A stretch of DNA of 31,491 nt. It comes from Promethearchaeota archaeon (GTDB taxonomy: Archaea; Asgardarchaeota; Lokiarchaeia; Sigyniarchaeales; SOKP01). Below, piece by piece: positions 180 to 22,117 of the stretch (positions are counted from its first letter, which is position 1; the number at the start of each line of letters is the position of its first letter). Where the stretch lies: assembly GCA_004524535.1 (NCBI GenBank), contig SDNY01000035.1:1-31491 (forward strand), read 5' to 3'. Made by a program: the position numbers and the translations under genes. Under the pieces are notes generated by a model that was given only the letters and a program-made list of their open reading frames with translations, was not told the DNA's origin and made no database searches.

Positions 180-1721
180 ATGCGAAAAGATTTAGAATAT
201 AACGATGCCTTAATAGAACTATGGGTTGATGCTTGCAAAAAATTTGTAGATATTAAAGAAGAAAAATATTTACTCCTAAGTATGGAAAAGTTAAACAATC
301 ATTTGAGAATCCCTCAAAGTCCTGTACAAATATATCATTATTTTTATACATATAATTATTTATGGCAATTTAAAAGCAGATTTTTCACTTTAGAAGATGA
401 TGATTTTTGGAAAATGTTGTTTTATCGTGCACTTTATGAAGAAAAGGATTTTAACCTTACACAAAAAATAATTCCGTTTTTAGAAAATGATATTAAATCA
501 AAAATAACTGACTTAGATTTATTATATAATAAGGCTGAGTCAATTAAAACCAAAATATATTCCTTTGAAGAAGATTCGAATAATTCGTTATCAATTAGTC
601 CAGATTTTATTTTAAATCAAGCAATAATAAGGATAAATTCAGATGGTCTTATCTCTTATCGTATGATATCAGAGAATTATATTATAAATGAGGGAATTAT
701 CTCAAATGAGTTTTGGAACGATACTAAGATGATGGAAATATATAATGATCTTTTTTCAGGACCAGGAGATAAGAAATTTAAATTTAATTTAACGGAATTT
801 GGAAAGTTATTATATATATTTTTACCTAAATTAATAAGAGATGTTTTCAAGCAATTAAAAACAAAAGAGAGGAATTTTACCCCATATATTTATTTTATTT
901 TAAATGATATGACAATTCCATTTGGTTTAGTTTATGACGATAATTTTTTCATGTTAAAATTTTCGAGTGGCTATAAAATTGGTGAACCTCCTCTCGTTGG
1001 AGTCGCTTTTGGACAAGTTGCTCAAGAGGAATCCATAACTAAAACAACATTAAATAAATTTAATGTTTTAATAATTGAAGCTGCAAATGCGAAAAGTCCT
1101 TTAAAATGGAATGAAGAACATAAAAATAAAACACTCATTTTTCCCTTCCCTGATGCTTTTGAAGAATTAAATCATATTACACAATTTTTTAATACCTGTG
1201 AAAACGTAAATCAAATCAGCATCTTATCCGGGGTTAATTCTACTCGTGAAAAGATATTGTTAAATCTTTCACAAAGAGCTTCAAAAATAATTTATTTTGT
1301 AGGAAATATATTTACGAGTAGAATGAGTCCTAAAGATAGTTATTTTCTTACGAACGATAATAACTTAATAACTTTTCAAGAAATCAAATACGCTTTAGAA
1401 AATAATGAATCTAATTCAAAACCATTGTTATTTTTTGATGCCCAATTTTTTAACGTTGATGGGAAAAGATTGAAAAATACTTTAAAAATATTTGGAGAAA
1501 TCGTTAGCCAATTCAACTATAATAAGATTTCAGGAATAATTTATCAAGCTCATTCACTTTTCAATGAAGATACTCGAAAGATCAAGGAAACCTTTTATTT
1601 AAACTTATTTAAGAATGATAGTCAAGGAGTAGCACTTCTAAAAGCCCGACAACAATATAAAAGTAGTATCGCAATTAGTTCAAGTTATATTCTCTTTGGA
1701 AAACCATGGCATAAACTTTAG
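180..1721 (+). CDS. CHAT (caspase-like) domain protein, probably catalytically inactive
   Basis: C-terminal half follows CHAT motif order (IPFGLVYD, AFEELNHI, STREKIL, IIYFVGN, LLFFDAQ, GVALLKARQ, YILFGKP), but the usual H-F-x-G-H-G and L-x-A-C catalytic positions read YFVGN and FDAQ. Confidence 0.6.
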   Translation: MRKDLEYNDALIELWVDACKKFVDIKEEKYLLLSMEKLNNHLRIPQSPVQIYHYFYTYNYLWQFKSRFFTLEDDDFWKMLFYRALYEEKDFNLTQKIIPFLENDIKSKITDLDLLYNKAESIKTKIYSFEEDSNNSLSISPDFILNQAIIRINSDGLISYRMISENYIINEGIISNEFWNDTKMMEIYNDLFSGPGDKKFKFNLTEFGKLLYIFLPKLIRDVFKQLKTKERNFTPYIYFILNDMTIPFGLVYDDNFFMLKFSSGYKIGEPPLVGVAFGQVAQEESITKTTLNKFNVLIIEAANAKSPLKWNEEHKNKTLIFPFPDAFEELNHITQFFNTCENVNQISILSGVNSTREKILLNLSQRASKIIYFVGNIFTSRMSPKDSYFLTNDNNLITFQEIKYALENNESNSKPLLFFDAQFFNVDGKRLKNTLKIFGEIVSQFNYNKISGIIYQAHSLFNEDTRKIKETFYLNLFKNDSQGVALLKARQQYKSSIAISSSYILFGKPWHKL

Positions 1722-2523: not shown

Positions 2524-4719
2524 ATGGTTAAAAATAAAGGTTTAATAAACCGGGAAGAAATCACACGATTATTCGGTTTAAGATCGCACTTTTTTGCTGA
2601 GATAATGCGATATCTTGAGAAGGAAGCTATTTTAAAAAAAGAAAAATTTGATGAAAAATTAAGAATGTTAAGAGGTAATATTTTTAAAGACTCGTCAGAA
2701 TTAAATTCAAATCTCTTTCTTAGGTATACATACTTTGCCTTATTATTGAAAGCACTTCTTATAATTAAGTTAAGCAACATTCAAAATTTAGATTTTGAAG
2801 AATGCTATGAAGATAATATCTCAAATAATTTAGAAGCATTGCATATATTTGAATTTGATTATTTCTTTTGGACGGATTTTAAAAAAAAAGCATTTGAACA
2901 AATTTATAATGCATTAGAATTTACAAAATTTGCTCAACAAGATTTATTCATTGATATCTATCAACAGATCTTCTTTTCCGTCACAAGACACAAGATAGGT
3001 GAATTTTACACACCATCTAATCTTGTACGATTAATAGTTGATGACTATTATGAATTAGGATCGAAGATATTAGATCCCTCATGTGGTTCAGGCAATTTCC
3101 TTATTGATATTATTCTTAAAATTATTAACTCTAAAGAAAGAAATAATTCAATAATAGATGCACTTAACAATGTTTATGGTTTTGATATTAACCCTTTAGC
3201 TGTAATGACTTCAAAAATCAATATTTTATTAATATATTTAGAATCTTTTGATGTTAGAAATGATGAGATGCCCAATCTCAATATTTTTTTACTCGATTCT
3301 TTATTTCCTGATAAATATGAGAATCAGATGTTTATCAACCTTAAGAACTTATATAATTCTTTTGATTTAATAATCGGAAATCCACCATGGTTAACATATA
3401 AAGATTTAGAGAATAAAGATTATCAAACAGAAATTCGCAACCTTGCAAGTAAACTAAAAATTAAACCCCCAAGCCAATATATAACTCATATAGAATTAGC
3501 TACTATCTTTTTTTATCAAATACCATTAAAATTTTTAAAAATAGGAGGCAAAATCTTTTTTGTCATTACTAAAAGCGTTTTAAATGGTGACCATTGTTAT
3601 GAGTTTCGATCATTTTCTTTATTTAATAAAAACTTAGAAATTTGGGATTTTCCTGATAATTATTTTTTCAATATACATCATGTTTGTTTAAAAGCGGAAT
3701 ATATTGGTGAAAATGATATCCCCCTAGAAGAGAAATATCCAATTAAAGCAAAAATATTTGATAAAGATTTAGAACTCCAAGAAGAGACTTATTATTCTAC
3801 CATAAAGTTAGAACAAAAGGGAGCAAAAATAATTATTCCAGTTAATCAACTAGAAATCCTTAGTAAAGTTTCTTATAGTAAGTATAAGGATAAGTTTTTC
3901 CAAGGTGCAACACTAGTCCCAAGAACGCTTGTTTTTTTTAAAATTGAAAAAAAAAAAAATAATCTTTTATTGATTTCTACAGATCGCGATATACTTTCGC
4001 GAGCAAAAAAAAAATGGAATTATTATTTTCAAAATAAAGAAATTGAGGTAAAATTTCATTTTAAAACGTTTTTAAATAGAGATTTAATCCCTTTTTTTTT
4101 AAAAAAGACTAGAAATGTTTTTCTGCCGGTTAATGATAATCTCGAATTCGATTCGGAATATCTTAATCAAAACCTAAAAGCAATTAGTTTTTATAAAGAA
4201 ATAAACGAATTTTATTGTAAAAACAAAAAGAAAACAAGCGATATTGATTCAATATTTTTAAATTTAAATTATTGGAATAAATTAACTAAACAGAATCAAA
4301 ATAAAAACTACTTGGTTATCTATAATGCAAGTGGCTCGAATTTAAAAGCAGCTGTTATAAATAATCGGGAACAAAGAATTATTGTAAGTTCCGAGAATTA
4401 TTATTATTCTACTGATTCTAAAGATGAAGCCTATTATTTATCCGCAATTTTAAATTCACCTATTTTATCGAAAAATATTAAACTTATTAAAAGTTCAAGG
4501 CATATACATAAAAGACCTTTTTCATTCCCAATACCTATATATAACGAATCTAATAAACATAAAGAATTGGCTAGACAGGCAATTAAATGCGAAACAATTG
4601 CTCAAGATCTTTTTATGAAAAATCCTAACATAAATACAATCAAACTTAATATAATTATCAATCATAAATTGAAAAAAATTAACAAATTAGTCGAACAAAT
4701 CGTGTTTAAAAGAAATTAA
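2524..4719 (+). CDS. N6-adenine DNA methyltransferase (Eco57I/type IIG-like MTase with C-terminal target-recognition region)
   Basis: GEFYTP, LDPSCGSGNF (SAM binding), GFDINPLAV, IIGNPPW (catalytic), YYLSAILNS-type C-terminal region. Confidence 0.85.
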   Translation: MVKNKGLINREEITRLFGLRSHFFAEIMRYLEKEAILKKEKFDEKLRMLRGNIFKDSSELNSNLFLRYTYFALLLKALLIIKLSNIQNLDFEECYEDNISNNLEALHIFEFDYFFWTDFKKKAFEQIYNALEFTKFAQQDLFIDIYQQIFFSVTRHKIGEFYTPSNLVRLIVDDYYELGSKILDPSCGSGNFLIDIILKIINSKERNNSIIDALNNVYGFDINPLAVMTSKINILLIYLESFDVRNDEMPNLNIFLLDSLFPDKYENQMFINLKNLYNSFDLIIGNPPWLTYKDLENKDYQTEIRNLASKLKIKPPSQYITHIELATIFFYQIPLKFLKIGGKIFFVITKSVLNGDHCYEFRSFSLFNKNLEIWDFPDNYFFNIHHVCLKAEYIGENDIPLEEKYPIKAKIFDKDLELQEETYYSTIKLEQKGAKIIIPVNQLEILSKVSYSKYKDKFFQGATLVPRTLVFFKIEKKKNNLLLISTDRDILSRAKKKWNYYFQNKEIEVKFHFKTFLNRDLIPFFLKKTRNVFLPVNDNLEFDSEYLNQNLKAISFYKEINEFYCKNKKKTSDIDSIFLNLNYWNKLTKQNQNKNYLVIYNASGSNLKAAVINNREQRIIVSSENYYYSTDSKDEAYYLSAILNSPILSKNIKLIKSSRHIHKRPFSFPIPIYNESNKHKELARQAIKCETIAQDLFMKNPNINTIKLNIIINHKLKKINKLVEQIVFKRN

Positions 4720-5994: not shown

Positions 5995-6001
5995 GGAGGT
6001 G
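5995..6001 (+). promoter_or_regulatory. Shine-Dalgarno site of the GTPase gene
   Basis: GGAGGTG lies 8 nt before TTG 6010 and only 2 nt before TTG 6004, so 6010 may be the true start; TATA-like TATTATAAAA at 5961-5970. Confidence 0.7.
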
Positions 6002-6003
6002 GA

Positions 6004-6690
6004 TTGAGATTGCCCTCCCGTAGAGGAGATGGAACTCTTGTATTCAAGATTTGCTTCTATGGGCCAAGTTTGGGGGGTAAGACAACTGCACTTGAATGGG
6101 TTTATAATCGGGAAGGTTTAGCTTCTGGAGACATGCAACAGATACAAGACCCGACTGGAAGGACATTGTTCTTCGATCGAGTCGTTGCTCGCGTATCGAA
6201 TGTAGTATTCCAATAAATTGAAGATCTCCTTCAGTGAGGAGAAGTCTACACTGTTGCTGGTCAGCGAAGACATAAATTCCAGCGCCAAACCGTTCTTAAA
6301 GGGACAGATGCTTGTATTTTCACGTGGGACTCGCTCATCGATCAAACACAGCTAACTTATGTTGCTGTGGGTTAATGGGGCGAGAACATCTGGTCTCTTA
6401 AGGAACTACTTAAATTTTATGGCGATAAATTAGTCCCTGCAAGTGCCCAGGATCCAACCCCAGAAGTTCCATTAGTACTATTAGCCAATAAGCGTGATTT
6501 AGACGATATCGTGGAGATTTCCAAGATTAGAAATGTGCTCGATACCGCAAAGCTTAACCATTGTCTCATCTACGAGACAATTGCAATCACAGGTATAAAC
6601 GTCAAACGTGCCTTCGTTTATGCGGCTAGGCAAGCGGTCTTGAACCACTACAAAAAGCTTTCCGGAAAATCAATGGAAAGTGCCACCTAA
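6004..6690 (+). CDS. MglA-like (Ras/Arf superfamily) small GTPase in three exons: join(6004..6213,6244..6345,6376..6690), 208 aa
   Basis: All three segments are in one frame. G1 GPSLGGKTT, G2 RTLFFD, G3 VYTVAGQ, then VLKGTDACIFTWDS, G4 LANKRD, G5 ETIAITGINV. Removing two 30-nt inserts gives VVFQ|VYTVAGQ and DSLIDQ|WGENIWSL, colinear with MglA. Confidence 0.92.
6214..6243 (+). other. Putative BHB mRNA intron 1 of the GTPase (30 nt)
   Basis: TAAATTGAAGATCTCCTTCAGTGAGGAGAA, in-frame TAA and TGA. Central helix UUCC(6208-11)/GGAG(6238-41), bulges AA^U and AA^G, exon helix UGUAG/CUACA, intron stem AUUGAAG/CUUCAGU. Confidence 0.85.
6346..6375 (+). other. Putative BHB mRNA intron 2 of the GTPase (30 nt)
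   Basis: ACACAGCTAACTTATGTTGCTGTGGGTTAA, in-frame TAA. Central helix GAUC(6340-43)/GGUU(6370-73), bulges AA^A and AA^U, intron stem CACAGC/GCUGUG plus AAC/GUU, exon helix CUCGCUC/GGGCGAG. Confidence 0.88.
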
Positions 6691-21152: not shown

Positions 21153-21566
21153 TTAGTTATTATCTTTTTTTAAGGGGAAATGTTTATTTATATCTTTAAA
21201 ATATATTAAATGACTCTTGCAATGACAGTCAGAACTCCCAAAATTTTCAACATATTCATCTGAAATCTCTACGAGTTCCTGGGCAATTTTACATTCGAGT
21301 TTAATCTTACAGGGAATTAAATAGACTTTAATAATAGAAACGCTATCATTTTCAAGTAAATAATCGATATGCCAATGGTTTTTTTTCTGGTGTGGGGATC
21401 TTAAATGTCTTTTCACTCTATTTAATAAAGTTGTGGAACCAGAGGTTCCCATAGCTGAACCTATGTAAAAATAAAATCCTCTTTTAAAATTTAGATTACC
21501 AAGTCTTCCAATTCTAATAGTTGAATTAAATTTTAAAAATATAACTAAAATGTAGCTTCCTTTCAA
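21153..21566 (-). CDS. DUF123 / GIY-YIG (Uri superfamily) nuclease-like protein
   Basis: KGSYIL, GFYFYIGSA, RVKRH, HWHIDYL, FGSSDCHCKSHL. Confidence 0.88.
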   Translation of the reverse strand: MKGSYILVIFLKFNSTIRIGRLGNLNFKRGFYFYIGSAMGTSGSTTLLNRVKRHLRSPHQKKNHWHIDYLLENDSVSIIKVYLIPCKIKLECKIAQELVEISDEYVENFGSSDCHCKSHLIYFKDINKHFPLKKDNN

Positions 21567-21586: not shown

Positions 21587-22117
21587 TTATTCAGGAACAT
21601 ATCCATTTTCAAGTAAAAGTTTTACGGTGAGCTTGGCTATATTACCTACTATTTTTGAACAGTTATCAACCATCTGTGTTTTAAATGAATCGTTCATTTC
21701 GTTCATTGACCATAAATCCCATGTAATGCCCATAAGTCCCCTTTGAACATCCGAACATCGACAAGATTTAGATTCTCCCCCATATTCCCTAAGATATTGA
21801 TTGAGCAATTTTTTTACGAGTCCATAGCTTTTCATGGGTTTATATATTTCTTCGAAATCTTTATGCTCTCTTCCAAATAGATAACTTATCACCATTGAAG
21901 CCCCCAATAAAGCAGCACATGAACCTTCTCCAGTTAATCCCAATCCATTAGCCAAACCACTCGCTGCTTTGAAGACATCCTCATTCCAAATACCTAATGC
22001 CTCAAATATTGCAGCTACAACTGTTTGAGCACACCCAGTGCATTCTTTCTCATATTTCACGCCAAGTTCATAGGCTTTTTCCATCATCTGATCTTTTGAT
22101 TTTGGTTTTGGTTCCAT
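21587..22117 (-). CDS. C_GCAxxG_C_C family putative redox protein
   Basis: GCAQTV, GLANGLG, GSCAALLGA, CRCSDV, NCSKIV. Confidence 0.8.
   Translation of the reverse strand: MEPKPKSKDQMMEKAYELGVKYEKECTGCAQTVVAAIFEALGIWNEDVFKAASGLANGLGLTGEGSCAALLGASMVISYLFGREHKDFEEIYKPMKSYGLVKKLLNQYLREYGGESKSCRCSDVQRGLMGITWDLWSMNEMNDSFKTQMVDNCSKIVGNIAKLTVKLLLENGYVPE

Follow-up and report, generated by a model that had tools for sequence, protein, structure and literature searches.

How can a GTPase be encoded by a reading frame that is interrupted by three in-frame stop codons? The question is raised by contig SDNY01000035.1 of GenBank assembly GCA_004524535.1, assigned to a Promethearchaeota archaeon (Asgardarchaeota; Lokiarchaeia; Sigyniarchaeales), the forward strand of which was analysed over its full length of 31,491 nucleotides (nt) and is termed the window below. 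Positions 6004-6690 (+) of the window constitute a single continuous frame with three internal stops, TAA at 6214-6216, TGA at 6235-6237 and TAA at 6370-6372. The first two lie within an insert of 30 nt at 6214-6243 (+) and the third within a second insert of 30 nt at 6346-6375 (+). Comparison with related sequences suggests, with a probability that we put at about 0.85, that both inserts are genuine bulge-helix-bulge (BHB) introns in the mRNA of an MglA-like GTPase from an Asgard archaeon (Promethearchaeia, Loki-type). Within a 3.66-Mb genome assembly of 198 contigs, 99% complete and with a G+C content of 30.4%, designated G000, the window corresponds to contig C104; related genomes are numbered as G0xx, gene loci as Lxxx, contigs as Cxx and sequencing runs as X1-X8.

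Translation of 6004-6690 with X at the stops yielded a match to the Pfam family Ras of 26.9 bits against a cut-off of 21.6. When an intron-less orthologue was compared with the PDB, the best matches were the MglA structures 5ymx, 6h17 and 3t12 (E ~1e-20), followed by Rab7 (1e-7). The G-motifs occur in their proper order, with the P-loop GPSLGGKT in exon 1, TVAGQ (G3, switch-II) in exon 2 and NKRD (G4) in exon 3. On the criteria of motif order and similarity to MglA, the interrupted gene is classed as an MglA-like small GTPase of the Ras superfamily.

Exon 1 occupies 6004-6213 (+); its frame opens at TTG 6004, and alignment favours TTG 6010 as the start, this codon lining up with the ATG of the orthologues. 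A putative Shine-Dalgarno-like site, GGAGGTGG, is located at 5995-6002 (+), 7 nt 5' of TTG 6010. As delimited by reading frame and protein alignment, exon 2 spans 6244-6345 (+; 102 nt, equal to 34 codons) and exon 3 spans 6376-6690 (+), the latter including the motif ETIAITG and ending in TAA at 6688-6690. A CAA codon stands directly 5' of both inserts. Without removal of the inserts, translation stops after 70 codons. A sequence-only reading of the locus had proposed a three-exon gene with a middle exon of 102 nt, an arrangement upheld here by comparison with more than 100 orthologues, by covariation and by tests of selection. Rfam and ARAGORN scans of the window gave zero matches.

Relatives of the GTPase protein were found in all 40 of the related genomes searched. 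In an alignment of the 20 best loci, the window included, both 30-nt inserts were missing from 19/19 orthologues and the flanking sequences matched base for base. The insert boundaries were ambiguous solely over an AA repeat, consistent with cuts of the form AA^N in both bulges, and the protein alignment likewise placed a junction between LIDQ and WGEN as in the orthologues. Removal of 6346-6375 gives ...WDSLIDQ/WGENIW..., with spacing identical to that of the intron-less orthologues. The sequence-only reading would have been undone by homologues in which the segment is coding; the homologues instead show it as non-coding. Placement of the cuts combines this alignment, ambiguous over the AA repeat, with the rule that EndA cleaves after the second base of the bulge. 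The cuts that had been proposed, AA^A and AA^U, agree with the orthologue alignment, the motif geometry and the covariation described below.

The second insert and its flanks can form all of the elements of an hBHBh' intron, namely a central helix between 3-nt bulges with a flanking exon helix (h) and intron helix (h'), and a check of the sequence located each of those previously listed at its given coordinates. The exon helix has its 5' strand within 6330-6339 (+) and its 3' strand at 6377-6384 (+): CUCGCUC at 6330-6336 pairs with GGGCGAG at 6378-6384 over 7 bp, one of them G-U, A6337 and U6338 are bulged, and C6339-G6377 forms an extra pair. The central helix (H) comprises 4 bp, two of them G-U, between the exon bases GAUC at 6340-6343 (+) and GGUU at 6370-6373. 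It is flanked by the 5' bulge AAA at 6344-6346 (+), with a predicted cut at 6345/6346, and by the 3' bulge AAU at 6374-6376 (+), with a predicted cut at 6375/6376. The intron helix of 6 bp, CACAGC at 6347-6352 with GCUGUG at 6364-6369, abuts the 5' bulge, and an inner AAC/GUU pairing (6354-6356 with 6361-6363) closes a UUAU loop at 6357-6360. The region 6325-6390 folds with z = -4.79, none of 200 shuffles being as stable, and the predicted minimum-energy fold retains the 5' bulge, the central helix and the intron helix.

The first insert, delimited by sequence and alignment, has a fully paired central helix (4/4) of UUCC at 6208-6211 with GGAG at 6238-6241, located at the cut that the alignment requires. 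Its bulges are AAU at 6212-6214 and AAG at 6242-6244, and its inner helix comprises 7 bp (6217-6223 with 6229-6235). Among homologues, the near-identical metagenome contig L130 has a homologous insert, L129 and L132 have one shifted by 1 nt, and G007 has a different insert at the same site.

Stronger evidence of structure is available for the intron-2 site, referred to as site 306. A pattern search allowing 27-36 free bases between codons for WDSL(I/V)DQ and W.E(N/D).W, which fixes the flanking codons and not the insert, recovered nine metagenome contigs with seven distinct inserts. Together with those of the window, G007 and L102, the site is occupied by 10 distinct inserts of 30-33 nt. An in-frame stop is present in 10/10, one of which is also frame-shifting, and in 7/10 two 3-nt bulges enclose a fully paired (4/4) central helix, the cut agreeing with the alignment. 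Gap-free alignment was possible for seven of the inserts, each of 30 nt. When the structure of the window was imposed on these seven copies, 94.4% of cells were paired as opposed to 43.7-54.8% when the 3' partners were slid by 1-3 columns, the former percentage being inflated by derivation of the structure from the window sequence itself. Seven pairs changed on both sides, compared with 1-3 when slid, and these double-sided changes support both flanking helices (1 pair in helix 1 and 5 pairs in helix 3). The covariation score was 0.378 against at most 0.127 for slid partners, and 0/500 shuffles reached 0.378, the aligned sequences being related and hence non-independent. The exon-exon pair 6333/6381 (column 13/61) occurs as GC in four copies, UA in two and CG in one, and the central-helix pair 6342/6371 as CG in four, UA in two and UG in one. 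In both pairs the exon partners occupy the third position of their codons (Ser, Gly, Asp), so that the motif is preserved by covariation of synonymous sites.

In a larger census of the GTPase gene, 89 of 111 copies had no insert; some genomes are counted twice in this figure, which includes species-representative genomes scanned as the best 80 of 177 relatives, a selection favouring uninterrupted copies. From the census, 26 distinct inserts were identified, ranging from 20 to 60 nt and distributed over about 11 sites. Canonical geometry, for which all 4 bp of the central helix had to be formed and flanked by 3-nt bulges at an alignment-consistent cut, was present in 17/26 inserts compared with 5.0% of 20,000 pseudo-introns drawn from uninterrupted copies. 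One heavily interrupted copy is that of G007, a member of the same genus (L026, G007:C130:4673-6357), with four inserts (31, 30, 31 and 30 nt) that follow reference nt 29-31, 204, 225 and 306, both window sites being among them. The two inserts of 31 nt would shift the frame; the exons are nonetheless open and the downstream sequence is conserved. The G007 copy would thus be a five-exon gene. At least three inserts, of about 28, 45 and 30 nt, interrupt the G023 orthologue (L025, G023:C10:20385-24677), and the orthologues of G009, G018 and G021 have one apiece. As a separate observation, positions 501-620 of the G023 locus, approximately 2.5 kb upstream, hold a second, partial copy of the first 40 codons of the GTPase. 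Locus L017 (G019:C95:2244-5798) is alignable only from residue 23, and its AT-rich, unalignable 5' part could stem from a long insert or from truncation of the gene. A search of G000 with blastn-short for further copies of the two window introns returned only chance matches of 17 nt or fewer, and a repeated mobile element was therefore rejected.

Four other genes of G000 were found to carry a 30-nt, stop-bearing, BHB-like insert inside one continuous Pfam domain match. In the gene for the RNA polymerase subunit A' (C17 309-338, -; L136/L143), an insert with TAG lies between GHFGH and IELARPV and is spanned by RNA_pol_Rpb1_1. The insert, with a central helix of 4/4 and an inner helix of 9 bp, is missing from 16 of the 22 relatives' loci aligned; different 30-nt inserts with fully paired central helices occupy the same site in G006 (L147, paired by script) and G010 (L148, by hand). 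Other inserts called by the aligner in this gene in four more distant relatives were read as alignment artefacts. In ribosomal protein L11 (C188 175-204, +; L137/L166), an insert with TAA interrupts PPIGPA/.GPTG and is spanned by Ribosomal_L11_N. This insert, which like that of RpoA' occurs in some relatives and is lacking in others, is common to five congeners, being 30 nt in G008 and G004 as in G000 and present as a 28-nt version in G005 and G002, and its central helices co-vary (GGCU/AGCC, GGUU/AGUC, AGCU/AGUU and GGCU/GGCU). The L11 genes of G005 and G002 also have a second insert of 36 nt upstream. The remaining two cases, each 30 nt with a stop and spanned by a single Pfam match, are located in the genes for CdhD, the delta subunit of CO dehydrogenase/acetyl-CoA synthase (C8 3057-3086, -; L140), and POR gamma (C189 15035-15064, -; L141).

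These four were obtained by ranking on helix strength followed by Pfam analysis: of the 20 top picks, seven were retrieved and four confirmed by a domain spanning the insert. Three further candidates, for which the Pfam match does not span the insert, are C100:12004-12033 (-) in a CODH/Prismane gene, C16:3517-3548 (+) in a DeoC-type aldolase (32 nt, frame-shifting and just 5' of GRNIFQ) and C101:21656-21685 (+) in an unnamed gene upstream of RtcB. Picks on C44, C77, C115 and C57 proved to be neighbouring genes or gene ends and not introns. Genome-wide counts were less helpful. A first scan of G000 for the motif combined with fusion of open reading frames, with a minimum of 50 codons to either side, failed to recover the introns of the window itself, and its 5290 combinations at 2837 loci, compared with 11986 in a mirror-repeat decoy, are uninformative as a count. 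A second scan returned 2063 combinations, which are mostly adjacent genes since AA bulges were no commoner than TT bulges (293 vs 317). In a comparison made independently of the motif with 393 kb of the congener G001, stop-bearing G000 inserts were found in the GTPase only, in 1/96 clean orthologue pairs, and the reverse comparison gave 1/109 pairs with a stop-bearing insert in G001; both figures are blind to introns common to the two genomes and yield no rate. On the G001 side, an insert of 30 nt, which opens with TAG and contains an 8-bp hairpin, interrupts the orthologue (G001:C9 ~720349-720753, within L123) of a G000 gene of 133 codons located on C159; no canonical BHB was found at the aligned cut.

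Genes for a candidate splicing machinery were identified in G000. Two EndA paralogues of 201 codons each, located on contigs C100 and C84, scored 107.9 and 70.7 bits (Pfam cut-off 27), one matching 3p1z_B/3ajv_B in the PDB (E ~1e-36) and the other 5x89/1a79 (E ~1e-24), and a single RtcB scored 561 bits. The presence of two distinct paralogues fits a two-subunit enzyme of broad specificity, as is described for most Asgard genomes in the available text of 10.64898/2026.10.13.758758. ARAGORN recognised only 12 tRNA genes in G000, eight of them with introns (8-70 nt, with one call of 2927 nt). The tRNA genes of other Asgard classes are heavily interrupted, according to the available texts of PMC11291895 and 10.64898/2026.10.13.758758. 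Most tRNA genes of G000 are probably too interrupted for recognition, and a yield of only 12 is as expected if this is so.

By these comparisons the GTPase inserts are one instance of a wider habit of the lineage, the GTPase being distinguished by the number of its sites. It is likely that a population of tRNA-type (BHB) introns has spread into protein genes of the Promethearchaeia, including the essential genes for RpoA' and L11 and a GTPase gene that would act as a hot spot (up to four introns per copy at about 11 sites), with sites re-used or kept and codons co-evolving with the introns.

For the GTPase, the pre-mRNA would fold locally such that exon GAUC pairs with intron GGUU between the two 3-nt bulges. 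A two-subunit EndA would then cut once per bulge, after the CAA ending at 6345 and after A6375, and RtcB would join the exons, whereby the stop-bearing 30 nt are lost and ...LIDQ/WGEN... is restored. The exon-joined product would be expected to contain the junction segments SLIDQWGENIWSLK and VVFQVYTVAGQR. We infer cleavage, ligation and the enzymes responsible, the genes for which are present.

Besides the inflated pairing percentage and the relatedness of the sequences noted above, several observations weigh against this assignment. The minimum-energy fold of intron 2 pairs A6337-U6376 and U6338-A6375 and thereby partly closes the 3-nt 3' bulge; the strict BHB conformer, at -19.3 kcal/mol, lies 4.8 kcal/mol above the minimum of -24.1 kcal/mol. 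The exon helix between the 3' bulge and the 2-nt exon bulge amounts to only 1 bp, or two with a U-G pair, and because so little separates the two bulges the wording of the sequence-only reading, a near-canonical hBHBh' motif, was apt, as it also is in view of the partial closure. Intron 1 is a relaxed form in which a 2x2 loop separates the bulge from the inner helix, and its region is of ordinary stability (z = -0.63). At site 306, 3/10 inserts have a central helix of 3/4 with one mismatch, and in the census 9/26 inserts fall outside the strict geometry, at least one of which (G009) can be fitted manually if the bulge is allowed 4 nt. Sequencing runs add a further point. Of 24 public runs listed, 23 contained part of the stretch, and four were examined as contigs: X1 and X2 (DNA) and X3 and X6 (RNA). 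These contigs (Logan) cannot reveal RNA ends, levels or rare forms, and parts that they leave uncovered are uninformative. No contig joining across either intron was present in the contigs of the two metatranscriptome runs, X3 and X6. A contig from X6 covering 6316-6393 at a depth of 4.9 was unspliced through intron 2 and identical to the window; it could represent pre-mRNA or carry-over of DNA. Run X3 covered parts of exons 1 and 3 only.

A second RNA contig from X6 bears on whether the cut pieces are rejoined at all. It is 102 nt long with a depth of 7.2 and corresponds exactly to 6244-6345, the predicted exon 2 at both ends; its 5' end falls 2 nt short of the branch point expected from a simple graph of spliced and unspliced forms. 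The contig amounts to a weak hint, and one candidate explanation is exon 2 in free or circular form. EndA might cut the motifs and the pieces be rejoined partly or not at all, as regulated cleavage, as free or circular exon 2 or as an mRNA from which exon 2 is skipped. For such an outcome speak the greater depth of this contig relative to the overlapping unspliced one (4.9), the lack of exon 1 cover or of a joined contig in X6, and the frame-neutral length of exon 2. Neither the ends nor the levels of RNA can, however, be read from contigs; the strong purifying selection acting on all three exons of intron-bearing copies demands that a full-length product be made at least part of the time, and RtcB is present in G000. 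The sequence-only reading had added that skipping of the middle exon would preserve the frame; the arithmetic holds (102 nt = 34 codons), but the skipped protein would be deprived of the TVAGQ switch-II motif and nothing supports skipping. Cleavage without full rejoining is accordingly rated as unlikely.

The RNA might alternatively never be cut, the ribosome bypassing the 30-nt gaps by programmed translational hopping, of which phage T4 gene 60 and the byps of yeast mitochondria are examples. The stop in intron 1 directly follows the last sense codon, CAA, a hairpin is present in each gap, and gaps of 29-33 nt are tolerated in any frame, all of which would suit hopping. Codons matched for take-off and landing are, however, lacking: the CAA at site 306 faces TAA, TAG, TTT, TAC, TAT or AAA before TGG. 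Covariation between exon and exon and between exon and intron moreover sets two 3-nt bulges 4 bp apart, which is the substrate of the endonuclease and to our knowledge has no role in hopping, and tRNA introns abound in the genome, which possesses both EndA and RtcB. Hopping is considered quite improbable.

Decay of the gene, with inserts that are junk which happens to fold, would account for the three in-frame stops and for the uninterrupted copies of close relatives. The state of the exons argues otherwise. Once the inserts were removed in silico, the intron-bearing copies contained zero exon stops or frameshifts. The ratio of non-synonymous to synonymous divergence (dN/dS) was 0.052 at a dS of 0.12 between the window and L130, which have both introns in common, and 0.025 at a dS of 2.1 between the window and L129, in which both sites are occupied; other intron-bearing pairs were saturated at synonymous sites with dN of 0.04-0.10. 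Ratios of 0.025-0.05 out to a dS of ~2 indicate that the exons are under strong purifying selection. Decay is also at odds with the occupation of site 306 by 10 distinct sequences with compensatory changes and with inserts of the same kind in the essential genes for RpoA' and L11. No second copy of the orthologue was found in G000, where the next matches have E 4.5e-14 against 3.3e-151 for the gene itself. A decaying pseudogene is thus highly improbable. An assembly or sequencing artefact, suggested at most by the metagenome-derived assembly of 198 contigs, is barely conceivable in view of independent contigs: one of run X2, from another study, spans 6206-6357 and passes through intron 1, the X6 contig 6316-6393 is without difference, and L130 has both introns, with the TAA of intron 2 unchanged in the latter two contrary to the sequencing error that the sequence-only reading had allowed for.

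Taken together, these data favour BHB introns in the GTPase mRNA, and the history of those introns was examined on a gene tree. The tree was built by a quick method from 95 distinct copies of a short gene with saturated synonymous sites; it omits L001, L022-L024 and L107-L126 (other genes), L017 (unalignable 5' part), copies with more than 150 gap columns (L127 among them) and identical projected coding sequences. On this tree the site-306 insert needs five changes, at least four of which are forced by well-supported (starred) branches, and the insert at site 204/205 needs two. A single supported group of eight unites the window, L130, L129/L132 and G007 with intron-less copies, and the remaining site-306 inserts are scattered and dissimilar in sequence. 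The site has either held an old intron that was often lost or been a favoured site that was hit repeatedly, gain and loss not being separable because the gene is short and its synonymous sites are saturated. In run X1, the probable source sample, a relative's contig corresponding to window 6187-6347 is without intron 1, and its intron-2 site is occupied by a different, hairpin-bearing insert resembling that of metagenome contig L135.

Elsewhere in the window, 2524-4719 (+) encodes an N6-adenine methylase of 731 codons that belongs to the Eco57I/MmeI type (Pfam N6_Mtase, Eco57I and MmeI_Mtase). A protein of 513 codons with a weak, sub-cut-off match to CHAT is encoded 5' of it at 180-1721 (+). 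Two open reading frames of 137 and 176 codons at 21153-21566 and 21587-22117 (-) share a strand and are separated by a gap of 20 nt.

A BHB intron in crenarchaeal cbf5 pre-mRNA was reportedly described by Watanabe in 2002. Such an intron in the pre-mRNA of cbf5, a pseudouridine synthase, in Crenarchaeota is the subject of Yokobori 2009 in its available text (PMC2738675). Like the cbf5 intron, the inserts described here are short and non-coding, interrupt an archaeal protein gene, adopt a BHB fold and are present or absent among related species. Removal of the cbf5 intron by the tRNA splicing machinery has been shown experimentally, whereas here splicing is predicted from sequence. The cbf5 case, moreover, concerns one intron in one gene of Crenarchaeota; here there are two per gene (four in G007) at about 11 sites across one Asgard order, and at least four further genes in the same genome have similar inserts. 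Beyond tRNA and rRNA, BHB introns are known only from crenarchaeal cbf5 mRNA and one Haloferax 5' untranslated region (UTR), as far as the available text of PMC7714728 extends. The latter, identified by that study in HVO_1309 of Haloferax volcanii, is likewise a case of mRNA as a substrate of the splicing endonuclease (here predicted), but according to the same portion of PMC7714728 it lies in an untranslated leader of a euryarchaeon and leaves the reading frame uninterrupted, whereas the GTPase introns interrupt it.

The resemblance to Asgard tRNA introns extends to two 3-nt bulges, a 4-bp helix that is half exon-built, similar sizes and the same presumed enzymes, and to repeated gain or loss at non-standard positions as portrayed in the available texts of 10.64898/2026.10.13.758758 and PMC11291895. 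The main texts of both papers, in so far as available and with their supplements outside this scope, did not report introns in protein genes. The full-text literature searched, subscription journals and supplements being outside its scope, yielded no account of BHB introns in protein genes of Asgard archaea. Unlike the tRNA introns, those of the GTPase have an mRNA as host, with no tRNA body to aid recognition, and the motif's exon half is made up of codons of which the synonymous positions co-vary with the intron.

In eukaryotes, a small intron of HAC1/XBP1 mRNA is cut at stem-loops by Ire1 and sealed by tRNA ligase or RtcB, altering the protein. The GTPase introns as proposed here are similar in that an mRNA intron is cut by an enzyme at paired sites and sealed by a ligase of the tRNA type, whereas HAC1/XBP1 splicing employs a different endonuclease (Ire1) and motif and is regulated by stress. 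What is new on the sequence evidence is the lineage, the several introns per gene, the many sites and the several genes; the motif and the presumed enzymes were already known.

If splicing occurs as predicted, the prokaryotes most closely related to eukaryotes would possess true multi-exon protein genes, served by an enzyme-based and possibly regulated splicing pathway. Questions then arise as to how a protein enzyme locates a splice motif that is partly made of codons, whether the introns entered preferred sites again and again or are ancient and have frequently been lost, and whether splicing of archaeal mRNA is under regulation. Because gene callers will split or truncate such intron-bearing genes, there may be effects on Asgard proteomes and marker-gene sets.

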